Positions 2,790 to 59,682 of a stretch of DNA of 64,000 bases are shown in pieces. The translations under genes were made by a program, and so were the position numbers. Source of the stretch: a virus; the IMG/VR virus record IMGVR_UViG_3300045988_069864; one strand, 5' to 3'. Positions within the stretch are counted from its first letter, which is position 1. The number at the start of each line of letters is the position of its first letter. The notes below the pieces were generated by a model, which was given only the letters and a program-made list of their open reading frames with translations, did not search any database and was not told the DNA's origin.

Positions 2790-3038
2790 ATGGAAAACGT
2801 TTGTGCATTGACCACAATTGACAATCCTTTTGATCCTTTTGATCAATTCAGTCAATGGTTTCTCTTTGATACAGAAAAAGGTTACAATTCTTGTTCTTAT
2901 CTTGCTCGAATTGCACAAACTTCTGATGAAATGTCTGAACAAGAATACAATCATGAAGTTGAACGAGCAATTGACGAAATTGTCACGATTAATCCTTTAG
3001 GAATTTACAAGAAAGTAACCAAACCCCAGGTAAATTAA
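2790..3038 (+). CDS. Small conserved phage protein, function unknown
   Basis: ATG 2790 lies 10 nt after GAAAGGAG and the ORF overlaps the RNAP stop. 82 aa, acidic, no motif I can name. Confidence 0.5.
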   Translation: MENVCALTTIDNPFDPFDQFSQWFLFDTEKGYNSCSYLARIAQTSDEMSEQEYNHEVERAIDEIVTINPLGIYKKVTKPQVN

Positions 3039-7809: not shown

Positions 7810-9555
7810 ATGGCATTATCAAATACTGCCGTGCCAATCTATTACGGCCAGTTTCGTGATGCCGTATTGAGAGGCGAAATTCCAGTATGTAAAGAAATCT
7901 CTATGGAGATGAACCGAATAGATGGACTCATTGCAAACCCCGGCATTTGGTATGATGACCAAGCTGTCGAGGGTTTTATTGCATTTTGTGAGAATGAACT
8001 TACGTTGACTGACGGAGAAGACCTTAAGCTTCTAGATTCATTCAAACTTTGGGCTGAGTCAATTTTCGGTTGGTATTACTTTGTAGAGAGAAGTGTATAT
8101 GTTCCGTCTCCGGATGGTCATGGCGGTCACTATGAAAGAAAGTCTATTAAGAAACGATTAGTTAACAAGCAATATCTCATCGTTGCTCGCGGTGCGGCTA
8201 AATCAATGTATGGTGCATGTCTTCAGAGTTTCTTCTTGAATGTGGATACCTCAACTACAAATCAGATCACGACTGCTCCGACAATGAAGCAGGCTGAAGA
8301 AGTTATGAGTCCAATTCGAACCGCAATTACTCGATCCCGTGGACCATTGTTTAAGTTCTTAACCGAAGGTTCACTTCAGAATACGACCGGATCTAAAGCC
8401 AATCGTCAGAAGCTTGTACCTACCAAAAAGGGTATTGAGAATTTCTTAACTGGTTCTCTTCTTGAGATCCGACCGATGACAATCGACAAGATTCAGGGTT
8501 CTCGTGCGAAGATCTGGACAATCGATGAATGGCTTTCTGGCGATGTTCGAGAGGACATTGTTGGTGCTGCTGAACAGGGTGCTTCCAAGAACGACGACTA
8601 TCTGATCGTAGCTATCAGCTCAGAAGGTACCGTCCGTAATGGTAGTGGTGATACGATCAAAATGGAATTGATGGACATCTTAAAAGGTGATTACATCAAT
8701 CCTCATGTGTCAATCTGGTGGTACAAGCTGGATGACATTGACGAAGTCGCTAATCCTGATATGTGGCTCAAAGCCAACCCGAATCTCGGTAAGACTGTCA
8801 GCTATGAAACTTATCAGCTTGACGTCGATCGAGCCGAAAAAGCTCCTGCTACACGAAACGACATCCTGGCAAAGCGCTTCGGTATTCCGTGCGAAGGCTA
8901 TACGTATTACTTTACGTACGAGGAAACTCTTCCTCATCGGAGACGAGATTACTGGAGTATGCCGTGTGCACTTGGCGCTGACCTTTCTCAGGGCGATGAC
9001 TTCTGTGCATTTACGTTCATGTTTCCATTGTCCGATGGTTCATTCGGAATCAAGACTCGTAACTACATAACCGAGCTTACATTGATGAAGCTTCCCGGTG
9101 CTATGCGGAACAAGTACAACGAGTTCATGCGCGAAGGAAGCTTAATTGTTATGCCCGGAACTGTTCTTGACATGATGCAAGTTTATGAGGATCTGGATGA
9201 CCACATCGCCAAGTGCGAGTATGACGTTCGTTGCTTCGGTTTCGACCCCTACAATGCTCGTGAGTTTGTAGAACGATGGGAAAGAGAGAATGGTCCTTTT
9301 GGTATTGAAAAAGTCATTCAGGGTGCCAAAACTGAGTCTGTGCCTTTGGGTGAACTGAAGAAACTTTCTGAGGAAAGAATGCTTAGGTTCGATGAAGATC
9401 TTATGACTTTCGCTATGGGTAACTGCATTACTTTGGAAGATACCAACGGTAACCGTAAACTTTTGAAAAAGCGATATGATCAGAAGATCGATGCTGTTGC
9501 AGCTATGATGGATGCTTATGTGGCATTCAAACTTAATCGAGAAGCATTTGAATAA
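7810..9555 (+). CDS. terL: Terminase large subunit
   Basis: 581 aa. The N-terminal pattern (YYGQFRD..L.GEIP....I......ID) and overall layout are typical of TerL, and the gene precedes portal. Confidence 0.85.
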   Translation: MALSNTAVPIYYGQFRDAVLRGEIPVCKEISMEMNRIDGLIANPGIWYDDQAVEGFIAFCENELTLTDGEDLKLLDSFKLWAESIFGWYYFVERSVYVPSPDGHGGHYERKSIKKRLVNKQYLIVARGAAKSMYGACLQSFFLNVDTSTTNQITTAPTMKQAEEVMSPIRTAITRSRGPLFKFLTEGSLQNTTGSKANRQKLVPTKKGIENFLTGSLLEIRPMTIDKIQGSRAKIWTIDEWLSGDVREDIVGAAEQGASKNDDYLIVAISSEGTVRNGSGDTIKMELMDILKGDYINPHVSIWWYKLDDIDEVANPDMWLKANPNLGKTVSYETYQLDVDRAEKAPATRNDILAKRFGIPCEGYTYYFTYEETLPHRRRDYWSMPCALGADLSQGDDFCAFTFMFPLSDGSFGIKTRNYITELTLMKLPGAMRNKYNEFMREGSLIVMPGTVLDMMQVYEDLDDHIAKCEYDVRCFGFDPYNAREFVERWERENGPFGIEKVIQGAKTESVPLGELKKLSEERMLRFDEDLMTFAMGNCITLEDTNGNRKLLKKRYDQKIDAVAAMMDAYVAFKLNREAFE

Positions 9556-26900: not shown

Positions 26901-28538
26901 ATGGCGGTAAAAGCTAGTGCATCAATTACTTTGAGTTTTATGGTGGATGTCTACGCTAGTTATCGCTATTACAAATTGCAGGCATCTACCGCATCTGCTC
27001 CTAATGCGCCTACAGTATTTCCTCCAAGTACTTCCAGTGGTTGGGACGATACAGAGCCAAGCTATACAAGTGGAAGTACCAATACGTTATACTTCGTTGA
27101 CTGTACCGTATTTACTGACGATAGCTTTGCGTATTCCAAAGTATCCATATCTAGCAGCTATGAAGCAGCTAAGGAGGCATGGAATAAAGCTAATAACGCC
27201 CAGAAGACAGCTGACGATGCTAAGGACAAAGCAAATGATGCAAATGTCAAGATTGATAATCTGGAAGTCGGCGGAAGGAATCTGCTTGTTAATGGAACGC
27301 TAGTTAACGGTTACCCATCTGCTAGTACTGGACAAATGGCATCAACAAGTGCTAATTTCAGAACGTCTGATTTTATTCCTTTAAAAACTGGAGAAACGTA
27401 TACGATAAGTTGGAGAAGAAACAGTAAAATAATTCGCCAATGGCTCGGTGTGTTTTACTATAAGTCAGACAAGACATTTATTAGTTGCGAAGATTTACAA
27501 CGAACTGGCGATCCAGTCATTCTAACAAAAGTGGCTCCTACTGAATGCGCTTATTTAAGAATCTATTGGCAATACTCGGTTGATGATAAAGTCAAAGTCG
27601 AAAAAGGCAACAAAGCTACCGACTGGACTCCTGCACCAGAAGATGTTGACAATGCTATTGACGATGCTGCCAAAACTGCAACCAATTATATGGAATTCAC
27701 CGAAGGAACTGGTTTGGTAGTTGGTGACATGACATCTGATACATTAGGGAAGAACTCTTTGATCGACTCCGATGGAATGGCTATTCGAGATGGCACTACA
27801 GAAATAGCTAGATTTTGTGCTAATAAGATTGAACTTGGTAAAAATAACGATTCATCTAAAACTAGCATAAGTCTGCTAAATGGATATGGAAACATAGATA
27901 CTACAACTGTTAATATAACCGACGTAGGAGAATACAAGTATTTGGATATATATGCAGAGAAAATTAGCATGGCATCCCAAACCGCAGCAAATAACATAGA
28001 TGGTTATATCCCAAGTATTATTATTACTCCAGATATTGCATCACTAAGATCCAGAGGCGCTTATGTTAGTGCTAATGCTGATGGGTCGGTATCTATACAT
28101 TCGGGCCTTAATAATGTATCTATTGAAGCAGGGTCTGTTAATTTCAAAACCGGTAATACTTCCTTGACCAAAAACTCGAATTATCGTATTTATGGTGGTC
28201 GCGTACTTTATAGTAATTCCAGCGGATCAACCGGAACCATTACTTTAAATGAAACAGCTAATAACTTTTCCATGATTGAAATATTTTACGGAAAAGACGG
28301 TCAAGGATATGACTCTACTAAAATATTTCTTCCGAATGGAAAAACGGCATCTCTTACCGTCACGAATATGTATAGTACTACTGGGATTCAGACGGCAACC
28401 AAACTTGTGACTATTTCCGGAACATCAGTTACCCCCAATACATCAAGATGCGGTTATGTTAACTTGGATGGTTCTAGTTTTTCAAAGACAGGCGCAGAAA
28501 ATACGATAAAAATACGCTATGTTGTCGGATACAAATAA
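26901..28538 (+). CDS. Receptor-binding / tail fibre protein 1
   Basis: 545 aa. Starts MAVKAS like the previous gene, has a coiled-coil neck (AKEAWNKANNAQKTADDAKDKANDANVKIDNLE) and a beta-rich head. Confidence 0.6.
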   Translation: MAVKASASITLSFMVDVYASYRYYKLQASTASAPNAPTVFPPSTSSGWDDTEPSYTSGSTNTLYFVDCTVFTDDSFAYSKVSISSSYEAAKEAWNKANNAQKTADDAKDKANDANVKIDNLEVGGRNLLVNGTLVNGYPSASTGQMASTSANFRTSDFIPLKTGETYTISWRRNSKIIRQWLGVFYYKSDKTFISCEDLQRTGDPVILTKVAPTECAYLRIYWQYSVDDKVKVEKGNKATDWTPAPEDVDNAIDDAAKTATNYMEFTEGTGLVVGDMTSDTLGKNSLIDSDGMAIRDGTTEIARFCANKIELGKNNDSSKTSISLLNGYGNIDTTTVNITDVGEYKYLDIYAEKISMASQTAANNIDGYIPSIIITPDIASLRSRGAYVSANADGSVSIHSGLNNVSIEAGSVNFKTGNTSLTKNSNYRIYGGRVLYSNSSGSTGTITLNETANNFSMIEIFYGKDGQGYDSTKIFLPNGKTASLTVTNMYSTTGIQTATKLVTISGTSVTPNTSRCGYVNLDGSSFSKTGAENTIKIRYVVGYK

Positions 28539-33247: not shown

Positions 33248-34705
33248 TTATGCAAATTTCCAGTAGACATGAAGATCTTCTTCGTCTACGACAATCTCTT
33301 TAATCAGCTCTTGTACAAGGGCTTTGATCTCGTCAATATCTCCACTATCAATCACATCACACAAACTCGATGCGATTTCTACAGCTTCTTCTTTTGACAT
33401 CTTCTCTTTATTTTCTAAAGATCTCATGTTAACTTCTAGCTTTTCTTTTTCAGCGAGCAATGCATCGGTTCTACTCTTAATCACATTTATATCTAGAGTT
33501 CCAAGAGTATATAAATCTATCAATTTATCAAGTTGTGAATCTATTTCTTCGATACGTTTGGAGATGACTTTTATTTTCATCGCATTCTCATCGCTTTCGG
33601 TTGAACCAATATCAAACGATTCCGGATGTAATGCAAGTTTACGAACTTCATCAAACACTTCTTTCTCGAGTTCTTCAGCTTTCCAAATTTTATTTTTGCA
33701 ACGTTCTTCTTTGGGTATGTCTTTCCACTTACCAGCACGACAAGATCGTTTGTAGCAATTGCAATACAACTTCGCACTGTTCTTGGTCTTCGCTCGACGG
33801 AAGAAGAACTTATTTCCGCAGTGACCGCAACGTATCATTCCAGCAAGAGGAGCATTAATTCGAGATATACGACTGTTAGCATCTTCGTCACGCTCGGCTA
33901 GTATAGCCTGTGTTTTTTCAAATGTTTCCTTATCTATAATCGGTTTGTGAATTCCTTCGTACCATTCACCTTTATATGATACCATGCCGATATAATGCTT
34001 ATTTTCTAGCAATGGTCTAATATTATGTCGATTCCAGTTTCCATCGTAAGTAGTTCTATACCCCTTTGATTGTAGCATTTCTGCAACTCGTCTTTGCGAT
34101 ATTCTCATGTTGAACAGTCTAAACATTTCTCGAATTTGCATTGCCTCATATTCGTGGACTACGAGTTCATCATTTTCGACTCGATATCCGATAGGTACGT
34201 AACGACTACCACACCATTTTCCTTCTTTGGCTCTACCGATCTTACCAACTTCCATACGCTCTTTTATTTGTTCACGTTCAAGTTGGGCGAAAACACTTAG
34301 AATACCAATCATAGCTCGTCCGAACGGCGTACTCGTATCTAGATTCTCAGTCATACTAATGAAATCTACGTTGTTTGGAAGGAACACGTCCTCGATAAGA
34401 GTCAGTGTATCCTTCTGCGAACGTGAAAGTCGATCGAGTTTATATACTAAAACGGCGTTGACCTTGTTACTTTCTGCATCTTTAATTAAAGACTGTAGTC
34501 CGGGACGATCTGTGTCTGCTCCAGAGTAACCAGCATCTGTGTATATTTTATGAACTACCCAACCTTTAGCTTCACAGTATTTAATCATTCTCTCAGTTTG
34601 TTCATTGATAGAGTATCCATCCTTAGCTTGCTCTAATGTAGATACGCGTGGATATAATGCTACACGCATGGCGTTTCTATTGACCACTCCGTATGTTTCG
34701 CCCAT
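33248..34705 (-). CDS. int: Large serine recombinase (integrase)
   Basis: Resolvase-type N-terminus (YPRVSTLEQ...GYSGA..DRPGL...VLVYKLDRLSRS), a recombinase domain, Cys-rich zinc ribbon (CGHCG...CNCYKRSC) and a C-terminal coiled coil. Confidence 0.9.
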   Translation of the reverse strand: MGETYGVVNRNAMRVALYPRVSTLEQAKDGYSINEQTERMIKYCEAKGWVVHKIYTDAGYSGADTDRPGLQSLIKDAESNKVNAVLVYKLDRLSRSQKDTLTLIEDVFLPNNVDFISMTENLDTSTPFGRAMIGILSVFAQLEREQIKERMEVGKIGRAKEGKWCGSRYVPIGYRVENDELVVHEYEAMQIREMFRLFNMRISQRRVAEMLQSKGYRTTYDGNWNRHNIRPLLENKHYIGMVSYKGEWYEGIHKPIIDKETFEKTQAILAERDEDANSRISRINAPLAGMIRCGHCGNKFFFRRAKTKNSAKLYCNCYKRSCRAGKWKDIPKEERCKNKIWKAEELEKEVFDEVRKLALHPESFDIGSTESDENAMKIKVISKRIEEIDSQLDKLIDLYTLGTLDINVIKSRTDALLAEKEKLEVNMRSLENKEKMSKEEAVEIASSLCDVIDSGDIDEIKALVQELIKEIVVDEEDLHVYWKFA

Positions 34706-35607: not shown

Positions 35608-36027
35608 ATGGCAACAGTAATACGAGCGGAACTATCAAAAAGAAATAAGTACTGGGTCGAGAAACACCGATACTACGAATTGAAACATTTTTGCTTGCAA
35701 TATCCAATTTGGAAACGAGCATATTCCGAGATTGAAATGCTAGGTGGGTGTACGTACGATCCAATGATATTTCATAGATCGAGTTCGCCAGGCGACCCAA
35801 CCGGACGACTAGCCGAGAAGCGGATGCTGTACCACGATCGAATGAAACTTGTCGAGCAAACAGCATTAGCCGCCGATTCGGAACTAGCCACTTATATTTT
35901 AAAGGGGGTGACTGAAGAACTAAGTTTTAACATGCTGAAATCAAAGTTGGACATACCGTGTAGTAAAGATACTTACTACGATCGGTACAGAAGATTCTTT
36001 TGGTTATTGGATGAAATAAGAGATTGA
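35608..36027 (+). CDS. RinA/ArpU-like (sigma region-4-like) transcription regulator candidate
   Basis: 139 aa. The YYELKHFCLQYP..K pattern and a C-terminal HTH-like segment (CSKDTYYDRYRRFFWLLDE) resemble phage late activators. Confidence 0.4.
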   Translation: MATVIRAELSKRNKYWVEKHRYYELKHFCLQYPIWKRAYSEIEMLGGCTYDPMIFHRSSSPGDPTGRLAEKRMLYHDRMKLVEQTALAADSELATYILKGVTEELSFNMLKSKLDIPCSKDTYYDRYRRFFWLLDEIRD

Positions 36028-36402: not shown

Positions 36403-36414
36403 GGGCTCTTTTTG
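36391..36414 (+). terminator. Intrinsic terminator
   Basis: GAGTCCC-TATA-GGGGCTC followed by TTTTTG. Confidence 0.6.
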
Positions 36415-36443
36415 TTCGCGCGAAAAGCATGTTCATTTATGAA
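36415..36443 (+). promoter_or_regulatory. TTCGCG-N17-TATG motif copy 2
   Basis: TTCGCG 36415-36420 and TATGAA 36438-36443. Heads ORF-less unit A. Confidence 0.5.
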
Positions 36444-36544
36444 GAGAGAACAAAAGTGAACATTAGAAAGACAAATTTATAAGATGCGACCGTCTATGCC
36501 TTCGCAAGAAGGAGGGAACACATATCGCACTCTCTTTTCATTTT
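36441..36544 (+). ncRNA. ORF-less transcription unit A (candidate ~100-nt RNA)
   Basis: No SD-preceded ORF. The 5' GAAGAGAGA (36441-36449) pairs with CTCTCTTTTC (36530-36539), which precedes ATTTT. There is an internal CCTTC-GCAA-GAAGG hairpin. Confidence 0.3.
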
Positions 36545-36571
36545 CGCGAAAAAAACTTGTTCCTTTATGCA
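36543..36571 (+). promoter_or_regulatory. TTCGCG-N17-TATG motif copy 3
   Basis: TTCGCG 36543-36548 (inside the palindrome TTTTCGCGAAAA) and TATGCA 36566-36571. Confidence 0.5.
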
Positions 36572-36597
36572 AATAAAACTTTTAGGAGGAATTTATT

Positions 36598-36750
36598 ATG
36601 ATGCCTGTAGGAGCTAAAATTGTGTCGAATATTGCTATTGGAATTATTTATATATGCACGATTCCAGTTGTAGTTACGACAATCAAAGCTGTCATTGCAG
36701 AAATCAAAAATATTCTTAGCGAAGAAGCATTTGACGACGAGGAGAGCTGA
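36598..36750 (+). CDS. 50-aa membrane peptide
   Basis: ATG after TAGGAGGA. TM segment IVSNIAIGIIYICTIPVVVTTI and an acidic tail. Confidence 0.5.
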   Translation: MMPVGAKIVSNIAIGIIYICTIPVVVTTIKAVIAEIKNILSEEAFDDEES

Positions 36751-36767
36751 GCAAGCTCTTCTTTTTT
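36743..36767 (+). terminator. Intrinsic terminator
   Basis: AGAGCT-GAGCA-AGCTCT followed by TCTTTTTT. Confidence 0.7.
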
Positions 36768-36769
36768 AT

Positions 36770-36798
36770 TTCGCGTAGAAAACATCCTCCTTTATGCA
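36770..36798 (+). promoter_or_regulatory. TTCGCG-N17-TATG motif copy 4
   Basis: TTCGCG 36770-36775 and TATGCA 36793-36798. The downstream leader is nearly identical to that of copy 3 (AATAAAACTTTTAGGAGG). Confidence 0.5.
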
Positions 36799-36825
36799 GA
36801 ATAAAACTTTTAGGAGGTATTTATT

Positions 36826-37026
36826 ATGAGTAACAGTATTATTCACAAGGTATTGGATTGGACTGAGAAAACAACGAATGAACTCGATCCTAAGACTGAC
36901 AAACATGCCTACGCAAAAGCGTTTGGTTTGGGTGCCATTGAAGGATTGATTGATTCCGCTGTATTCTGGTATCTGCCATTGCTTGCATTGTGCTATTACT
37001 GGAAAGGTAAGGCTGAAAAGAAGTAA
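36826..37026 (+). CDS. 66-aa membrane protein
   Basis: Strong SD and a C-terminal TM segment (AVFWYLPLLALCYYW). Confidence 0.55.
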   Translation: MSNSIIHKVLDWTEKTTNELDPKTDKHAYAKAFGLGAIEGLIDSAVFWYLPLLALCYYWKGKAEKK

Positions 37027-37034
37027 TTCTGAGG

Positions 37035-37072
37035 TGAGGGCCATCTAAACGATGGCTCTTTCTTTTATATTT
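37035..37072 (+). terminator. Intrinsic terminator
   Basis: GAGGGCCATC-TAAAC-GATGGCTCTT followed by TCTTTTATATTTT. Confidence 0.7.
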
Positions 37073-37207
37073 TCTAATCTAGATTAAGTATCCTAACCTA
37101 GCTTTAAAAGTTCCGTACTCGGGTGACGACAAACAATGTTATTTTTATAAAGTCGAAATTTTCCCGGGTGGGATTTTTGAAAAAACAAAATGAAAGGAGG
37201 TGGGTAT

Positions 37208-37423
37208 ATGGATTACATAATTCTCTTTGTTGTCTGTATCTTGGTTAATATTGCGATCAACATTATATTTTTCGATCATAAACCATCCGGAACCCTTCGA
37301 ATCGATCATTCTAATCCTGAGAAAGATATCTATCGTTTTGAAATAAACGATTTTGATGCACTGTCCAAGAAAAAGCGAATCGTCATCAATGTGGATAACA
37401 ATGCTTATCTTTCGCAAGAGTAG
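37208..37423 (+). CDS. 71-aa membrane protein
   Basis: ATG 37208 follows AAAGGAGGTGGG. N-terminal TM segment IILFVVCILVNIAINIIFF. Confidence 0.55.
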   Translation: MDYIILFVVCILVNIAINIIFFDHKPSGTLRIDHSNPEKDIYRFEINDFDALSKKKRIVINVDNNAYLSQE

Positions 37424-37439
37424 CATGCACTATTATGGA
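37411..37439 (+). promoter_or_regulatory. TTCGCG-N17-TATG motif copy 5 (TTCGCA / TATGGA)
   Basis: TTCGCA 37411-37416 overlaps the last codons of the upstream gene. TATGGA is at 37434-37439. Confidence 0.4.
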
Positions 37440-37474
37440 ACGTAAGTTCACATATTTGAAAGGAGTAGTTATTT

Positions 37475-37858
37475 ATGAGCTACAAGACCCTGTTGAATGA
37501 AGAAATCGAAAACGAGTTCAAAGAATTAAAGAAATTGAATGTTGGCTCGGAACAGTACAAAACGGCAGTTGATGGTCTGACCAAACTGATGGACAAAAAT
37601 CTTGAGATTCAGAAGTTCGAAGCGGAACGTTCGGAGAAGGATACTAGTCATTGTGACGACTATGAACTTCAAACGAAACAGTTCGAAAGCGAACGTCGGG
37701 ATCGCATTGTGAAGAACGTCCTGACTGCGGCCGGTATCGTATTGCCGCTTGGTGTAACTATCTGGGGAACAATCGTATCGATGGATTTTGAGAAGGAGGA
37801 GACGTTTACTACGATCATGGGTCGAGGCTTTATCCAAAAGCTTCTTCCAAAGAAGTAA
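37475..37858 (+). CDS. Hypothetical 127-aa protein with one TM helix
   Basis: SD GAAAGGAG, a coiled-coil N-terminal part and TM segment VLTAAGIVLPLGVTIWGTIV. Confidence 0.6.
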   Translation: MSYKTLLNEEIENEFKELKKLNVGSEQYKTAVDGLTKLMDKNLEIQKFEAERSEKDTSHCDDYELQTKQFESERRDRIVKNVLTAAGIVLPLGVTIWGTIVSMDFEKEETFTTIMGRGFIQKLLPKK

Positions 37859-37870
37859 GAACTAAGTTTT

Positions 37871-37903
37871 AAGAAGGGGCCGTGGAAACATGGTCTCTTC
37901 TTT
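37871..37903 (+). terminator. Intrinsic terminator (GAAACATGG-loop family)
   Basis: AAGAAGGGGCC-GTGGAAACATGG-TCTCTTCTT followed by TTT. Confidence 0.55.
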
Positions 37904-37932
37904 TTCGCGAAATTTACAGCGTGTATTATGAG
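37904..37932 (+). promoter_or_regulatory. TTCGCG-N17-TATG motif copy 6
   Basis: TTCGCG 37904-37909 and TATGAG 37927-37932. Heads ORF-less unit D. Confidence 0.5.
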
Positions 37933-38080
37933 AGAAAGCAATGGATAAATGCTGGTGGAAATCCAGCGGTGAGACACGAAGGCGGTGCGCCAAGTAATAA
38001 CTTAATAAAAGATGCACCCTACCGGGCAACGGTTTTCGTTGGGCCGACCCTGAAGTCATTACTTTCTCTCTTTTATTTTT
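37930..38080 (+). ncRNA. ORF-less unit D (candidate ~150-nt structured RNA or terminator-containing leader of gene 38109)
   Basis: The 5' GAGAGAAAG (37930-37938) is the perfect complement of CTTTCTCTC (38062-38070), which precedes TTTTATTTTT. Internal hairpins are GCTGG..CCAGC, GGCG-GTG-CGCC and CGGGCAACG..CGTTGGGCCG. Confidence 0.35.
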
Positions 38081-38108
38081 ACAAAACTTTTACAAGGAGA
38101 GGATTGTC

Positions 38109-38850
38109 ATGAGATTACGTCCCAGGCTTAGAAAGATTCATTAAAAAGAATGGAGCAACTATTCTAACTGGTATCGGGGTCACCGGAGTTGTGGCTACTT
38201 CAGTTTTAGTCGGTAAAGCTACATTCAAAGCTTCCGAAATTTTAGAAGAAACCAAGAAAGAAAAAGGTGGAAAACTGGAAACTATGGAAGCCGTTAAACT
38301 TGTAGCTCCGGTTTATATTCCGTCAATCGTAATGGGCGCATCTACTATTGCTTGTATTCTTGGTGCGAACGTACTGAACAGACATCATCAAGCAGCTTTA
38401 ACTAGTGCGTATGCGTTTGTTGATCAATCTTTCAAAGAGTACAAAGCAAAAGTTACTGAATTGTATGGTGAAGAAGCCGATCAAGCAGTAGAAGAGGCAA
38501 TCGAGCAAGATCATGTTTCAGGAGAAAACGATCTTCAATTATTCTATGATGAATTATCAGACCGATATTTTGAATCTACGCCATACAGAGTCCAAAGAGC
38601 AGAATACGAGTTGAATAGAAATATGCTTAAGCGAGACTATGCATACTTGAATGAATGGTATGAAGAATTAGACCTAGACATCGTAGAGAACGGCTATGCT
38701 TTAGGTTGGTCTACATTCCAATGTATGGAAATGTACTGGCAACCATGGATTGACTTCGATCACTATTCATTCACCACTGAAGATGGTCGAGAATGTATGG
38801 GACTTTGCATTATCCAACAACCGATCTTAGATTTTGAGGATTATTGCTAA
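38109..38850 (+). CDS. TM-anchored paralog A (family of 3); needs a +1 shift at CCC-AGG-C (38121-38127), or is a pseudogene
   Basis: ATG 38109 lies 7 nt after AAGGAGAGG, and the zero frame stops at 38144. The +1 frame from 38113 encodes GLERFIKKNGATILTGIGVTGVV, which aligns with paralogs B and C. Confidence 0.5.
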
Positions 38851-39625: not shown

Positions 39626-39654
39626 TTCGCGATGAAAACATTTTCCTTTATGAG
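39626..39654 (+). promoter_or_regulatory. TTCGCG-N17-TATG motif copy 8
   Basis: TTCGCG 39626-39631 starts 2 nt after the upstream stop. TATGAG is at 39649-39654. Confidence 0.5.
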
Positions 39655-39685
39655 AAAATAAACTTTCTGAAAAGGAGAAAGGAAT

Positions 39686-40994: not shown

Positions 40995-41023
40995 TCCGCG
41001 AAATTTGCAAGTTATTTTATGAG
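40995..41023 (+). promoter_or_regulatory. TTCGCG-N17-TATG motif copy 10 (TCCGCG)
   Basis: TCCGCG 40995-41000 and TATGAG 41018-41023. Confidence 0.45.
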
Positions 41024-41065
41024 AAGCAGATAGCTTCCGTTATATTTCGAAAGGAGTAATTAATC

Positions 41066-50716: not shown

Positions 50717-50721
50717 AAGTT

Positions 50722-50757
50722 TAGGGCATCTGAAACATGGTGTCCTATTCTCTTTAT
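50722..50757 (+). terminator. Terminator hairpin, variant of the GAAACATGG-loop family
   Basis: TAGGGCATC-TGAAACAT-GGTGTCCTA followed by TTCTCTTTAT. Confidence 0.6.
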
Positions 50758-50785
50758 CGCGAACTGAAAAACTAACTTAAAAGGG

Positions 50786-50826
50786 TAAGACCTGGTGGAA
50801 ACGCTGGGTCTTATTCTTTTATATTT
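50786..50826 (+). terminator. Hairpin + T-run immediately upstream of the tRNA
   Basis: TAAGACC-TGGTGGAAACGCTG-GGTCTTA followed by TTCTTTTATATTT. Preceded by a degenerate motif copy (ATCGCG 50756-50761, but AAAAGG in place of TATG). Confidence 0.5.
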
Positions 50827-50901
50827 GGGCCATTAGCTTAAGGGTAAAGCTGGCAGCTCATAACTGCTTGAGTGCGGGTTCGAATCCTGCATGGCCCACC
50901 A
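50827..50901 (+). tRNA. tRNA with anticodon CAT (elongator Met or Ile2-type), CCA encoded
   Basis: Hand fold: 7-bp acceptor stem (GGGCCAT/ATGGCCC), 4-bp D stem, anticodon stem GGCAG/CTGCT with loop CTCATAA, 5-nt variable loop, T arm GCGGG-TTCGAAT-CCTGC, then ACCA. Confidence 0.85.
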
Positions 50902-53130: not shown

Positions 53131-53420
53131 AAAAAGATGATATTTTGGTGGTTAAATGCAATGTTTTTCTGAAACAAGATAAATATAAGGATCTCTATCA
53201 AAGCATTCTTGAGCAAAAAATAAACGGTGTGGTTATTCTTCCAGCATATTGCGATGCCGTCATTGTTCCAAAAGATACTGAAATTAAGGTTGAACCTGAC
53301 TCTGACCAGCCTAACCATACATGTATAAATTGTAAGTGCGGTGATAATATAGCTTCTGATGATCCTTGTTACAGATGTATGGAAAAAAGTCTCTGGGAGC
53401 CTAAGGATGATCTTAAATGA
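53127..53420 (+). CDS. Hypothetical 97-aa protein with C-terminal Cys cluster
   Basis: Start/stop overlaps with both neighbours. Cys cluster CINCKCG....DDPCYRC. Confidence 0.55.
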   Translation: MKKDDILVVKCNVFLKQDKYKDLYQSILEQKINGVVILPAYCDAVIVPKDTEIKVEPDSDQPNHTCINCKCGDNIASDDPCYRCMEKSLWEPKDDLK

Positions 53421-55120
53421 ATAAGGAAATATGGAAGGATATCGAGGGCTTTCCTAATTATGAAGTAAGTAATCATGGACAAATTAGAAACAAAACAACT
53501 AACCATATTTTATCTCCGATCCCGGACAAAGACGGATACTTAAGAGTACATTTAAATACTGATAAAACTGTAAAAAGAGTTCATCGATTAGTGGCCGAAG
53601 CGTTTATTCTAAACCCGAACAATAAGTCCCAAGTTAATCATATAGACGGTGACAAAACTAACAATGATGAAACTAATCTCGAATGGGTTACTGTTGGAGA
53701 AAACAACATTCATGCATTAAAAACAGGATTACGAAATATTTCTAGACCAGTCCGAATAGTAGAAACAGGAGAAATTTTTAGCAGTATACGAGAGTGTGCT
53801 TCCGCAATAAATGCTAAAGAACAAAATGTCCAAGCAGTTGCTTCTGAAATGAAAAATCGTAAAACAGTAAATGGTCTACATATTGAATATATGGAAAAAC
53901 CTAAACGTACTCCATTCTTATACGATTATCAAATGGAAGCTGTGCAAAAACTCCATAACGGATGCATTCTTTGTGGTTCTGTGGGATCTGGCAAATCAAG
54001 AACAGGACTTTTCTATTATTTCAAAGAAAACGGTGGTTGGATTGATGAGAACGGTTATGTTCCAATGAAGAACCCTCAAGACTTAATTATCATTACAACT
54101 GCAAAAAAGAGAGATTCGCTCGAATGGGAAGGAGAGTTAGCTAATTTTCTAATTTCAAAAAATCCAGAAGTAAGTTATTACAAAAACAAAGTGATAATCG
54201 ATAGCTGGAATAATATCAAAAAGTACAAAGATGTAACTGGAGCATTCTTTTTGCTGGATGAACAACGATTAGTCGGTAGCGGTTCATGGGTTAAGACTTT
54301 TCTTAAGATTGCTAAATCAAATCAATGGATATTATTAAGTGCAACTCCTGGGGATTCGTACATGGACTATTTGCCGGTATTTTTGGCAAACGGTTTCTTC
54401 AGAAACAAAACCGAATTCACAAGAGAGCATGTTGTATATTCCAGATACACAAAGTATCCAAAGATCGATCACTATGTAGGTACACAATTTCTCAATCGAT
54501 TACGAGACAAAGTTCTTGTAAAAATGAACTATCAGCATAAGATTAATACTCATCATGAGGACATCTATTGCCGGTATGATATTTCAGCTTACAAAGACGC
54601 TATTCGTAACCGTTGGGACCCATATAAAAACGAACCAATTCAACAAGCATCGGGGCTTTGCTATGTTCTAAGAAGAATAGTCAATTCGGATGAATCAAGA
54701 CAGATACAGTTACTCGAAATTCTTGAGGACTACGATCGAGCAATTATATTCTATTCGTTTGACTATGAATTAGATATTCTTAGAAATCTTGGTTACGGCG
54801 AAGATGTTGAAGTTGCTGAATACAATGGGCACAAGCATCAGCCTGTTCCAGAAGGTAAGAAGTGGATATATTTATGTAACTATACATCAGCATGCGAAGG
54901 TTGGGAGAACACACGAACCAACTGTATTATATTTTACAGCCAAAGCTACTCATATAAAGTCATGACTCAAGCTGCTGGACGGATCGATCGACTGAACACT
55001 CCATACGCTGATTTATATTACTATCACCTCAAAAGCCGTTCTGGAATCGACCTAGCCATCTCTAAAGCTCTTAGAGAGAAGAAGCAATTTAATGAAGTTC
55101 GTTGGGTTAACGGACATTGA
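53417..55120 (+). CDS. HNH homing-endonuclease-like module (NUMOD4 + HNH + IENR-like) fused in frame to an SF2 (DEAD/SNF2-like) helicase
   Basis: aa 1-~155 carry WKDIEGFPNYEVSNHGQIRN, HRLVAEAF and VNHIDGDKTNN..NLEW. From the internal Met 159 (nt 53891) the helicase motifs follow: YDYQ, GSVGSGKS, LLDEQ and SATPG. Confidence 0.7.
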   Translation: MNKEIWKDIEGFPNYEVSNHGQIRNKTTNHILSPIPDKDGYLRVHLNTDKTVKRVHRLVAEAFILNPNNKSQVNHIDGDKTNNDETNLEWVTVGENNIHALKTGLRNISRPVRIVETGEIFSSIRECASAINAKEQNVQAVASEMKNRKTVNGLHIEYMEKPKRTPFLYDYQMEAVQKLHNGCILCGSVGSGKSRTGLFYYFKENGGWIDENGYVPMKNPQDLIIITTAKKRDSLEWEGELANFLISKNPEVSYYKNKVIIDSWNNIKKYKDVTGAFFLLDEQRLVGSGSWVKTFLKIAKSNQWILLSATPGDSYMDYLPVFLANGFFRNKTEFTREHVVYSRYTKYPKIDHYVGTQFLNRLRDKVLVKMNYQHKINTHHEDIYCRYDISAYKDAIRNRWDPYKNEPIQQASGLCYVLRRIVNSDESRQIQLLEILEDYDRAIIFYSFDYELDILRNLGYGEDVEVAEYNGHKHQPVPEGKKWIYLCNYTSACEGWENTRTNCIIFYSQSYSYKVMTQAAGRIDRLNTPYADLYYYHLKSRSGIDLAISKALREKKQFNEVRWVNGH

Positions 55121-59450: not shown

Positions 59451-59464
59451 TTATTGCTAGGGGT

Positions 59465-59493
59465 CACGCGAGAATTACATATCGTATTATGAG
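59465..59493 (+). promoter_or_regulatory. TTCGCG-N17-TATG motif copy 15 (CACGCG)
   Basis: CACGCG 59465-59470 and TATGAG 59488-59493. Heads ORF-less unit L. Confidence 0.45.
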
Positions 59494-59600
59494 AGAAAAG
59501 AGAATCATGTATTGGTGATGACCTTTGCCCGGTGTGTAAGGGGAATTGTACATTATTACAACAATACAGTAGAACTCGCACTTTTCTCTTTTATTTTTTT
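59491..59600 (+). ncRNA. ORF-less unit L (candidate ~110-nt RNA or terminator-containing leader)
   Basis: The 5' GAGAGAAAAG (59491-59500) pairs with CTTTTCTCTT (59581-59590), which runs into TTTTATTTTTTT. Only 9-aa or shorter ORFs have any start signal. Confidence 0.3.
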
Positions 59601-59638
59601 GTTTGCGTGGCTAACGGGGAACCACCCATTGGAATCCC

Positions 59639-59682
59639 TAGGAGATCTGAAACATGGTCTCCTATTCTTTTATATTTGTAAA
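59639..59682 (+). terminator. Intrinsic terminator, copy 2 of the identical 44-nt element
   Basis: Identical over 44 nt to 52401-52444. Confidence 0.8.

Follow-up and report, generated by a model that had tools for sequence, protein, structure and literature searches.

Candidate small structured-RNA genes closed by a terminal helix behind a promoter-like motif in a gut phage contig

Results

A promoter-like motif and a candidate polymerase

The window, the 64,000-nt stretch of the IMG/VR virus record IMGVR_UViG_3300045988_069864 that was analysed as a whole, opens with a gene for a two-barrel YonO-like RNA polymerase (1-2787, + strand; phrog_4291, E=0). Its ORF is open to the window start and its frame is open upstream of 94, so that the enzyme has 897 aa or more. 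The DxDGD signature of two-barrel RNA polymerases is present as ADFDGD (residues 455-460, with DFDGD from residue 456), and an HTH domain (HTH_38, residues 856-894) lies at the C-terminus. The protein is a homolog of gp55 of Faecalibacterium phage FP_oengus.

A 29-bp motif, CGCG-N17-TATG, occurs 16 times in the window, always on the + strand and between 32728 and 62875 (PWM scan). Its further conserved blocks are CGCG (-24) and AC (-13). The same motif gave 482 hits on the + strand versus 6 on the - strand in 90 related loci, and the cultured phage FP_oengus has 14 copies. Most copies lie after terminators and 10-40 nt 5' of an SD-ATG, and purines, usually the SD itself, follow every copy. Scans for sigma-70-type promoters returned none above chance. 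Judged by eye, the three conserved blocks are spaced wrongly for sigma-54, TcdR-type and ECF-type geometries, which were therefore rejected.

In its placement the motif behaves like a promoter, and it may be one. The RNA 5' end would then probably be the G of TATG, because helices and tRNA-like genes begin 0-5 nt from this G and because the late promoters of phiKZ offer a precedent: they carry TATG with G as +1 and are used by a non-canonical phage RNA polymerase (PMC4666361). The phage's YonO-like polymerase may be the enzyme that reads the motif. A rival reader would be the host RNA polymerase together with a 139-aa phage protein. This protein had no sequence match in Pfam, NCBIfam or PDB; its AlphaFold2 model is of moderate quality (pLDDT 69), and the resemblance of the fold to sigma region 4 falls short of significance (E about 4). 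For YonO itself, the promoter sequence was stated in 2017 to be still undetermined, and the one start that was mapped lies ahead of a non-coding RNA without annotation (PMC5467207). A literature search on YonO promoters, DUF6353 and gut-phage tRNA-like RNAs returned nothing on the present system.

Three motif-led units and their closing helices

An earlier note, made from the sequence alone, had described three ORF-less units that run from a motif copy to a T-run, and had claimed that the pyrimidine arm before the T-run pairs with the purines that start at the G of TATG. Folding and motif scanning reproduced the units and their pairings as described. Unit A (36441-36544, + strand) is an ORF-less RNA of about 104 nt. 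Its motif (36413-36441; CGCG 36417-36420, TATG 36438-36441; PWM 31.8) lies directly 3' of the terminator of the upstream gene. In the minimum-free-energy fold, the 5' arm (36441-36449) and the 3' arm (36531-36539) form a terminal helix of 9 bp with one G-U; the tail ATTTT (36540-36544) follows, and the next promoter motif begins at 36545. Unit D (37930-38080, + strand) starts at the end of the motif at 37902-37930 (CGCG 37906-37909, TATG 37927-37930; PWM 34.5). A conventional terminator 5' of this motif, at about 37875-37905, was read from the sequence and was not flagged by the terminator scan. The terminal helix of unit D comprises 9 of 9 Watson-Crick pairs (37930-37938 with 38062-38070), continues with 5 more bp past a 1-nt bulge, and is followed by the U-run TTTTATTTTT (38071-38080). 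Unit L (59491-59600, + strand; motif 59463-59491, with CGCG 59467-59470 and TATG 59488-59491; PWM 29.4) has a terminal helix of 10 bp, including one G-U, between 59491-59500 and 59581-59590, and the U-run TTATTTTTTT at 59591-59600. The helices enclose 81 nt in A, 123 nt in D and 80 nt in L, and the fold z is about -2.2 for each unit.

In all three units, a U-rich tract lies directly 3' of the stem. The terminator scan found no local hairpin at the three ends, and none of these ends has a compact stem rich in G+C that closes a loop of about 3-8 nt; the same scan reported conventional hairpin terminators at 36739, 37036 and 59639. Measured from the next CGCG, the U-runs of stand-alone units sit where ordinary terminators have theirs. 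Unit L is followed by a stretch at 59601-59674 (+ strand) that consists of a conserved 40-nt spacer and a hairpin terminator (59639-59664) with a T-run, where the L transcript may have a second 3' end. The resemblance between the three 3' ends, which the earlier note had also pointed out, is largely that of the window phage's generic terminator tail, CTCTTTTATTTT; the additional TCGCACT is shared by A and L alone.

Homologs of unit A were found in relatives (referred to by locus number). In L123, L124 and L128, all 9 closing pairs are kept, with the G-U replaced by A-U in L128, and the hairpin CCTTC/GAAGG is swapped for CTCA/TGAG. In all of its homologs, unit A is followed by a promoter motif and is thus stand-alone. 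Searches of IMG/VR with a unit A pattern and with a frameshift-site pattern recovered nothing beyond the contig of the window itself and a 99% twin. For unit L, only near-identical relatives were found, in which two inner-helix substitutions keep pairing via G-U. For this unit, nhmmer had no hit in 80 loci that were collected by means of the upstream 117-aa protein, and an exact-protein look-up gave near-identical copies only. Other perfect panhandles do occur downstream of the homologous 117-aa gene, with 12 bp directly after it in L238 and 10 bp about 400 nt after it in L259. Since the homologs of A and L are few or near-identical, little covariation stands behind these two predicted structures. 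The region had no match among 50,697 phage records by either megablast or blastn. An IMG/VR query with a 15-mer made up of promoter and arm was too unspecific, with 120 mostly chance loci.

The core of unit D is a conserved RNA family

The conserved core of unit D (37943-38057, + strand) is 115 nt long, runs from GGATAAATGCTGG to CCCTGAAGTC, and folds into helices P1-P5 around a multi-helix junction. A covariance model scored 177.5 bits at this site. The core is present in 32 distinct units of contigs from gut phages and metagenomes, in every case immediately 3' of the motif. The covariation check on relatives that the earlier note had proposed was carried out, and the closing helix of the D family does covary. 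In a 14-sequence alignment, 10 pairs of the consensus structure are changed on both sides, of which five belong to P1 and four to P3. The covariation score was 0.279 versus 0.133 for shuffled alignments (0/500) and 0.04-0.07 with slid partners, and 97.7% of the cells were paired versus 33-49% when the partners were slid. The core is therefore a structured RNA whose common fold is supported by compensatory changes. It is near-invariant, including the junction nucleotides, and the arms vary. Across the family, cognate flanks pair at -12.45 kcal/mol and non-cognate ones at -7.59 kcal/mol (p=4e-8). Many G-U pairs are conserved, which makes the structures specific to the + strand.

Because the next promoter motif directly follows the U-run in 20 of the 32 distinct units, the D core can be regarded as a stand-alone unit. 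The core of L124 is 16 nt shorter. In L123/L124, L221, L224 and L226, the core is joined to a tRNA-like module; the insert in L123/L124 was called by neither ARAGORN nor Rfam. The covariance model did not find the units in the D slot of L126 and L128. It found neither A nor L, so the three window units, which are not mutually homologous, do not constitute one RNA family.

The whole window gave no Rfam hit at gathering thresholds except tRNA. With E up to 10, nothing relevant was reported in the three regions, nor in L123 and L128; no known riboswitch class matches, in line with the earlier note, which could assign the internal sequence to none. A cobalamin riboswitch was considered, as the D core is similar by eye (GGTGGAAATCC, GAAGTC), and was rejected; no Rfam cobalamin model reports the region with E up to 10. 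The D core represents an RNA family outside Rfam that is widespread and highly conserved in phages.

tRNA-like RNAs occupy the same slot in relatives

About 40 related prophages and phage FP_oengus carry a tRNA-like RNA in the same slot. In these RNAs, the arm pair is the 7-bp acceptor stem, extended by 2-3 leader/trailer pairs, and the D- and T-arms are canonical. Forty-one of the 45 tRNA or tRNA-like genes begin 2-5 nt after the G; none encodes CCA, and a U-rich tail follows all of them. ARAGORN called 29 of the 41 promoter-fused genes tRNA-???, with 2- or 4-base 'anticodons'. The anticodon loops are mostly of 6 or 8 nt or branched, and are mostly non-decoding. In FP_oengus, a phage of F. 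prausnitzii, the units lie at 2514-2640, 2934-3010 and 27708-27752 of NC_047916. Cultured lysogens of this group include Hungatella hathewayi DSM 13479, [Ruminococcus] torques ATCC 27756, Cuneatibacter caecimuris DSM 29486, strains of Blautia faecis and B. glucerasea, and Muriventricola aceti H5_61, in which the D core is present. The window units do not form a cloverleaf with a D-arm and a T-arm (GGTTCGAnTCC), and the only ARAGORN call in the window is a tRNA-Met at 50827. Their arm sequence (GAGAGA.../...TCTCTC) is of the same kind as the acceptor stems of the relatives' tRNA-like RNAs. The panhandle architecture recurs in relatives with many different interiors.

Discussion

Proposed explanation

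We interpret A, D and L as self-contained small structured-RNA genes that are built on one reused phage chassis, and give this reading a probability of roughly 0.55. Transcription would begin at the G of TATG or no more than about 2 nt away from it, and the first 9-14 nt would provide the 5' strand of the closing helix. The structured cargo would come next, and the complementary 3' strand would emerge immediately before the U-run. Closing helix and U-run would together work like an intrinsic terminator, with the entire RNA as its 'loop'. The product would be a released RNA of 100-150 nt with both ends in a helix, shielded from 5' and 3' exonucleases; we infer its 3' end at the U-run, its stability and its abundance from this arrangement. 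A long-range stem would close more slowly than a local hairpin, so termination would be partial, and read-through would supply the DUF6353 mRNA behind D and whatever lies behind L. The cargo would be a highly conserved five-helix RNA in D, tRNA-shaped RNAs in the corresponding slot of relatives, and lineage-specific RNAs in A and L. Of the two models in the earlier note, a family of panhandle-shaped RNAs and leader attenuators, the former is the better supported.

Several points speak against this reading. Arm complementarity in single units exceeds the background only modestly, and covariation in A and L is scarce. Loops of intrinsic terminators are normally 3-8 nt. Termination by a helix closing 85-130 nt would be atypical, especially for a YonO-like enzyme, given that YonO is without a flap domain (PMC5467207). 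Moreover, stem and U-run cannot terminate efficiently at D in the window or at many of the relatives' tRNA-like units, because the downstream gene there has no promoter of its own.

A broader and more doubtful proposal, which we put forward tentatively, is that phages of the Oengus type in gut Clostridia use the chassis of own promoter, probably read by a YonO-like polymerase, closing helix and U-run to make a swappable repertoire of tRNA-shaped and other structured RNAs, including the new 115-nt class, that acts in trans on conserved host machinery. Such RNAs could serve as decoys for tRNA-targeting defences or for tRNA-processing or translation factors. A link to the conserved +1 frameshift of the gene that follows them, with MRLRP-GLERF as the predicted junction peptide, is conceivable.

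Alternative explanations

Unit D could instead be a cis-acting attenuator or riboswitch-like leader whose cargo senses a ligand, protein or tRNA and whose P1 closes and terminates transcription before the gene. The arrangement in the window speaks for such a leader: unit D is the 150-nt leader of a DUF6353 gene (+ strand; SD AAGGAGAGG at 38094-38102, ATG at 38109-38111) that has no promoter motif of its own and whose start codon lies 29 nt past the unit. Eight other distinct D copies likewise have a promoter before them and a gene lacking a motif behind them, and DUF6353 genes are often preceded by such units. The core also looks like an aptamer, with invariant junction nucleotides, covarying helices and P1 followed by the U-run, and the 3' arm can pair with the SD instead. 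However, where a promoter motif directly follows, as in 20 of the 32 units, the next gene is independent of read-through. The genes downstream of D copies differ, so that the RNA fronts unrelated contexts, and a consistent position upstream of a read-through-dependent gene is lacking. No conserved antiterminator or alternative arm-core pairing was found; the latter is unlikely because the arms vary freely around an invariant core. With no known riboswitch class matching, we consider regulation of this kind unlikely.

Alternatively, the units might protect the 5' end, or promote translation, of the downstream mRNA without any termination, the SD-like 5' arm holding the anti-SD-like 3' arm off the real SD. 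Other motif leaders do start with a hairpin at the G of TATG, as at 37438 (GGAAC-GUAA-GUUC), 39653 and 41022, and so do several leaders in relatives. In addition, when the read-through D transcript is folded, the minimum-free-energy structure joins the 3' arm to AAGGAGAGG, while the centroid keeps P1; in the window, this alternative pairing involves low-complexity sequence. Such a role would leave unexplained unit A and most D copies, where a promoter comes directly next, as well as the constant U-run after the 3' arm. We regard it as improbable.

The arms might also be complementary by chance, since purines follow the motif and pyrimidine tails precede the U-runs; every terminator tail in the window phage is pyrimidine-rich. 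For single units, arm complementarity is modestly above the composition-matched background (2-6%): non-cognate 5'-arm/3'-arm pairings match the duplex energy of D in 6% and that of L in 2%, and reach at least 7 bp in 14.5%. In a non-redundant set of 63 units without an ORF, all taken from relatives, helices that are anchored at the G of TATG, abut a U-run and have 8 bp or more were found in 19 of 63 cognate versus 281 of 3906 non-cognate pairings (Fisher 8e-8). An energy-based test over all 63 units, in which the U-run was chosen automatically and wrongly for unit A, was not significant overall (p=0.23), with enrichment only in the tail. The arm pairs in relatives are of many different sequences (GAAATAGAATAA/TTATTCTATTTC, GAAAAGTAAG/CTTACTTTTC and GAAGAAAGATGAT/ATCATCTTTCTT, among others) and include perfect arms of 10-13 bp with non-repetitive sequence, and pairing occurs in all three ORF-less window units, each of which has no local hairpin. 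We take the covariation of the closing helix within the D family as the decisive sequence evidence for pairing. Together with the advantage of cognate over non-cognate flanks, the compensatory changes in P1 already largely refute chance for D, and chance is very improbable as the general explanation.

Small peptides would be another possibility, with the purine arm as SD and the products (MDKCWWKSSGETRRRCAK in D, MNIRKTNL in A and MYW in L) possibly leader peptides. The absence of an SD-preceded ORF, as claimed in the earlier note, does not hold strictly: D contains an 18-codon ATG ORF and A an 8-codon GTG ORF, SD-like purines precede the start codons by 5-9 nt, and the D peptide has tandem Trp codons. 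Neither start codon nor reading frame is conserved, however. The ATG of D is ACG in copies of the L206, L216, L217 and L321 type, the GTG of A is GCG in L128, the 16-nt shortening of the L124 core is not a multiple of three, and substitutions in D are compensatory in helices rather than codon-like. A coding function is scarcely credible.

Finally, the units might be DNA-level elements, the arms being the terminal inverted repeats of miniature mobile elements that had inserted behind the promoter. The arms are indeed inverted repeats, and close relatives differ in their interiors at one locus in a cassette-like manner. Against this, many conserved G-U pairs would turn into A-C mismatches when read from the opposite strand, the arms always span from the same promoter position to the U-run, there are no target-site duplications, and only the + strand is used. 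This explanation is also scarcely credible.

The findings matter for several reasons. The motif is a candidate promoter for an understudied family of single-chain, two-barrel, phage-encoded polymerases. The D core represents an undescribed RNA family that is common in human-gut phage contigs, and many cultured gut Clostridia prophages as well as FP_oengus harbor unannotated, promoter-fused tRNA-like RNAs with mostly non-decoding loops. If the reading is true, the gene architecture is one in which a whole small RNA serves as the terminator 'loop'. These predictions are testable in existing strains.

Comparison with known systems

As in intrinsic terminators, the helix ends at a U-run of 6-10 nt, and its position relative to the next motif is that of the phage's own hairpin terminators. 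The 'loop', however, is a folded RNA of 85-130 nt where 3-8 nt would be usual, the putative transcript start itself provides the 5' strand, and the stems are rich in A/U and G-U pairs. A, D and L lack the D-arm and the T-arm that characterise phage-encoded tRNA genes and tRNA-like RNAs; the relatives' RNAs differ from phage tRNAs in having no encoded CCA and in leader-trailer pairing that extends up to the predicted start site. Bacterial Y RNAs (YrlA) are likewise modular RNAs in which paired ends close a molecule with a tRNA-like module, as in L123/L124, L221, L224 and L226. Unlike them, the present RNAs have no Rfam Y-RNA match and no identified Ro-binding helix, and no Ro/Rsr gene was noticed in a cursory view of the neighbourhood.

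Transcriptional OFF riboswitches share with unit D a multi-helix core and a covarying P1 next to a U-run, directly behind a promoter. They differ in that the D core belongs to no known class, that most D copies have no dependent gene, and that no antiterminator pairing was found. The 5' stabiliser stem-loops of Firmicute mRNAs resemble the units in that the helix begins at the predicted 5' end or within 2 nt of it, as in other motif leaders, whereas the partner strand here lies 90-130 nt away and is followed by a U-run, and many units have no mRNA behind them. Compared with phiKZ and YonO, the motif is a longer one, of 29 bp with extra blocks, and its link to the polymerase is a putative one. 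The motif ends in TATG, as in the phiKZ late promoters with their G as +1, and the window phage encodes a single-chain DFDGD polymerase of the kind of SPbeta YonO.

Terminal helices of units A, D, and L

Units A (36441-36544), D (37930-38080), and L (59491-59600) span 104, 151, and 110 nt, with no credible gene after the motif. The earlier note had described terminal helices in which purines starting at the G of TATG pair with pyrimidines before the U-run. Minimum-free-energy folding closed all three units with exactly those pairings, from TATG G to the U-run. The closing helix comprised 9 bp with one G-U in A, 9 Watson-Crick pairs, a bulge, and 5 more pairs in D, and 10 bp with one G-U in L; fold z-scores were about -2.2. 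The 3' arms had been said to lack a nearby partner, and a terminator scan that detected ordinary terminators near the units gave no local hairpin at their ends; none of the three has the compact hairpin of an intrinsic terminator. The Rfam scan proposed there matched none of the three regions, whether gathering thresholds or E values up to 10 were applied. The window units are not tRNAs, Rfam family members, or Y RNAs.

Arm pairing compared with chance

Purines follow every motif copy and every terminator tail is pyrimidine-rich; hence, some complementarity comes free. As a chance control, 5' arms were matched to segments bordering the U-run in units other than their own. Of these non-cognate pairs, 14.5% formed a helix of 7 bp or more, and the duplex energies of units D and L were equalled by 6% and 2% of them, respectively. 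Among 63 non-redundant ORF-less units gathered from relatives, the proportion of pairings giving a helix of 8 bp or more was 19/63 for cognate and 281/3906 for non-cognate arms (p=8e-8). A cruder energy-based arm test placed the enrichment in the tail only. Because background complementarity is substantial, one unit alone is not convincing; the comparative sequence data argue convincingly for arm pairing beyond chance.

Unit D is a predicted conserved RNA family

Syntenic relatives were found via DUF6353 homologs (L123, L124, L126, L128, L318, and L319). All six carry a long ORF-less unit in the D slot, with complementary arms and different interiors. A 19-nt string from the D interior recovered 23 IMG/VR contigs, and a degenerate 31-mer recovered 46 metagenome contigs, several named as human-gut assemblies. 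The combined searches yielded 32 distinct units with a common 115-nt core (GGATAGATGCTGG...CCCTGAAGTC), always located 9-13 nt past TATG G or past another RNA module starting at that G.

The RNAalifold consensus of 14 distinct sequences has five helices. The covariation that the earlier note had suggested looking for in homologs is present in this set, with two-sided changes at 5 pairs of P1 (the closing helix) and 4 pairs of P3. Alignment cells were paired in 97.7% of cases, versus 33-49% with partners slid by 1-3 columns, and no shuffle equalled the observed covariation score. Mean pairing of the P1 flanks was -12.45 kcal/mol for cognate and -7.59 kcal/mol for non-cognate arms of the D family (p=4e-8). 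Because many of the conserved pairs are G-U, the fold is specific to the + strand. Unit D is predicted to be a conserved structured RNA. A D-core covariance model matched only known D members in 0.92 Mb of related DNA, and it did not match units A and L. The core is near-invariant even between phages that share only 50-60% identity in neighbouring proteins, which suggests a conserved partner. An 18-codon ORF in D was rejected, as several members have ACG in place of its ATG and the L124 core is 16 nt shorter.

Stand-alone genes or leaders

The earlier note had left two models, small panhandle RNAs and, for D and L, leader attenuators of the downstream genes. Directly after the U-run comes the next promoter motif in 20 of 32 distinct D units, a ribosome-binding site and gene in 9 (window included), and a tRNA-like module in 3; the loci were gathered with probes from the window phage, so these frequencies are not population estimates. 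The next motif comes immediately after unit A, both in the window and in every homolog (L123, L124, and L128). These homologs keep all nine closing pairs, with one hairpin stem swapped (CCTTC/GAAGG to CTCA/TGAG), and the GTG mini-ORF of unit A is absent in L128. Only near-identical relatives of unit L were found, in which two inner-helix substitutions still pair via G-U; few homologs underlie the structures of A and L. The position of the motif directly after most D units and all A units favours the first model, with A and D as putative independent small-RNA genes, over gene-specific leaders. The window DUF6353 gene starts 29 nt past D without a motif of its own and must be transcribed through D's U-run.

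At 8607-8730 of the close relative L123, an additional motif leads into ~65 nt of non-coding DNA and then an ordinary hairpin terminator. In the window counterpart, a 66-aa gene runs directly into the same terminator; such units are thus gained and lost between near-identical phages.

The DUF6353 gene (38109-38850) starts ATG AGA TTA CGT CCC in frame 0 and meets a stop after 11 codons. A +1 shift at CCC AGG C (38121-38127) is required to reach the DUF6353 frame (GLERFIKKNGATILT...). CCC AGG and the same +1 need recur in seven diverged loci (window, L123, L124, L126, L128, L318, and L319), and the in-frame homolog at L127 (P0005) has TAT CCA GGC instead. AGG and CCC are rare here (1.8 and 3.4 per 1000 codons, respectively). 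The arrangement has the appearance of a conserved programmed +1 frameshift ('hungry AGG' type). Gene callers shorten the frameshifted proteins to 179-221 aa.

tRNA-like and other cargos in relatives

With an alignment of a 139-aa protein (35608-36027), 80 prophages were recovered from Lachnospiraceae, Oscillospiraceae, and other Clostridia, including several cultured strains. In ~40 of the 80, a tRNA-like gene starts 2-5 nt past TATG G. Across fetched prophages, syntenic relatives, and IMG/VR contigs, 41 of 45 ARAGORN-called tRNA(-like) genes were motif-fused with this spacing. Twenty-nine of the 41 were called 'tRNA-???' with 6- or 8-nt loops, and the loop UGAAAU recurred on covarying stems; tetraloops or branched insertions were seen in others, and a few have loops read as suppressor or Ile anticodons. 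The motif-fused genes all lack an encoded CCA and have a U-rich tail behind them. In these genes, the purine-arm/pyrimidine-arm pair consists of the acceptor stem (GAGACAG/CTGTTTC and variants) plus 2-3 leader-trailer pairs reaching TATG G. In L183 and L187 (Hungatella hathewayi DSM 13479 and a Lachnospiraceae strain) and L184, ARAGORN read suppressor anticodons TTA and TCA in 7-nt loops; these loops have no U33, so decoding is doubtful.

The cultured Faecalibacterium phage FP_oengus (NC_047916.1) carries a motif-fused tRNA-like RNA with a 6-nt anticodon loop (2934-3010), a stand-alone panhandle unit of ~125 nt (2514-2640), and a 45-nt start-anchored hairpin with a U-run before gp53 (27708-27752). 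The RefSeq record annotates no RNA at these sites.

The D core often shares a unit with a tRNA-like module, which lies 5' in L123, L124, and L226 and 3' in L221, L224, and L227. Unit D of two close relatives has an extra insert of ~85 nt (L123 9576-9660; L124 9672-9757) whose T-arm is canonical (TTAGGTTCGATTCCTAA); its CGCG...CGCG resembles a D-arm, and it also has an acceptor-like stem. The insert was called by neither ARAGORN nor Rfam. Perfect 10-13-bp arms enclose other cargos in L141, L161, L164, L221, L238, and L259. The prophage locus L164 (3309-3900) has three consecutive motif-driven ORF-less units with repeated modules (GAGAAGGTTAA..ACCTTGAG; GGACGAAGGTTCG), the first having a perfect 11-bp panhandle. 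Given the tRNA-shaped cargos, tRNA-handling machinery or tRNA-targeting defences could be the conserved partner suggested by the D core.

Promoter-like motif and candidate polymerase

The window is essentially the entire genome (IMG/VR contig 3300045988_029432) of a temperate siphophage related to FP_oengus, with a primase-polymerase 60% identical in protein. The structural genes fill roughly the 3-32 kb interval, a serine integrase is encoded on the minus strand (33248-34705), and the stretch from 35.6 to 63 kb contains numerous short + strand genes together with three DUF6353 paralogs and the replication genes. A 567-aa ORF (53417-55120) joins an N-terminal NUMOD4 and HNH homing-endonuclease module to a DEAD-box helicase-like region and may represent an endonuclease insertion or fusion in a helicase gene.

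The motif reads CGCG-N17-TATG followed by purines; its three conserved blocks (CGCG, AC, and T-TATG) are spaced by roughly one helical turn. A weight matrix derived from 15 copies located 16 in the window, all on the + strand of the early/replication half (32728, 36417, 36545, 36772, 37413, 37906, 38853, 39628, 39940, 40997, 49464, 50541, 52072, 58446, 59467, and 62875), and none in the structural block (3-32 kb) or on the minus strand. In 90 related loci, 482 matches fell on the gene strand versus 6 on the opposite strand; the first 30 kb of FP_oengus contains 14 copies, likewise confined to one strand. Most copies have a hairpin terminator immediately 5' and a Shine-Dalgarno sequence (SD) and start codon within 10-40 nt of TATG. 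No sigma-70-like promoter above chance was found near the units. The sole canonical tRNA in the window (Met, CAT, CCA encoded; 50720-50901) is not motif-fused and lies behind two consecutive hairpin terminators and a degenerate form of the motif (CGCGAACTGAAAAAC..., no TATG).

A two-barrel RNA polymerase ORF on the + strand (94-2787, open to the window start, 1-2787) matched phrog_4291 (E=0), labelled 'RNA-dependent RNA polymerase'. It has ADFDGD, the two-barrel polymerase catalytic signature, a C-terminal HTH domain (HTH_38), and homologs in FP_oengus (gp55) and many Arthrobacter, Gordonia, Streptomyces, and Lactococcus phages. Together, these features predict a single-chain enzyme of the YonO kind. 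Some 250 homologous phage records (Arthrobacter, Gordonia, Streptomyces, Rhodococcus, Lactococcus, and Faecalibacterium) are labelled 'RNA-dependent RNA polymerase' or merely 'HTH DNA-binding protein'; they come largely from the phage groups matched by the 1325-aa primase-polymerase.

The promoter of YonO is unknown, and its single mapped start precedes an unannotated non-coding RNA (PMC5467207). Late promoters of the phiKZ non-virion polymerase have the consensus TATG, with G as +1 (PMC4666361). This precedent makes a start at TATG G plausible, in agreement with the helices and tRNA-like genes that begin there. Longer-than-minimum motif leaders often open with a small hairpin from that G, e.g., GGAAC-GUAA-GUUC (window 37438-37452, 39653-39670, and 41022-41040; L126 12664; L123 8631), which fits a 5' end there and 5'-end protection. 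The YonO-like polymerase may read the motif, a circumstantial link. Alternatively, host RNA polymerase may be directed to the motif by the 139-aa protein, a possible specificity factor encoded a short distance upstream of the first early-region copy (36417). The AlphaFold2 model of this protein (pLDDT 69) best matched ECF sigma region 4 in the C-terminal half; however, the match was not significant (E about 4). The protein belongs to phrog_11237, with >5800 homologs in the protein database and no Pfam or NCBIfam family.

Proposed mechanism and relation to known systems

We propose that the units are small-RNA cassettes. The closing helix would form once its 3' strand emerges and, with the U-run, would end the transcript and leave both RNA ends paired. 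Closure over 80-130 nt should be slower than that of a hairpin, so part of the polymerases would read through; past D, this read-through would supply DUF6353 mRNA. The SD (AAGGAGAGG) is an alternative partner for the 3' arm in such a read-through transcript; hence P1 may, on weak support, also keep the SD free.

The kinds concerned are already known: phage small RNAs, tRNA-like RNAs, and intrinsic termination. In our literature searches, no description was found of the architecture, the D core, or promoter-fused non-decoding tRNA-like RNAs, and all three appear undescribed in the literature searched. The units are proposed to work like intrinsic terminators, yet without a compact hairpin, and, judging from their arrangement, they do not behave as gene-specific riboswitches would.
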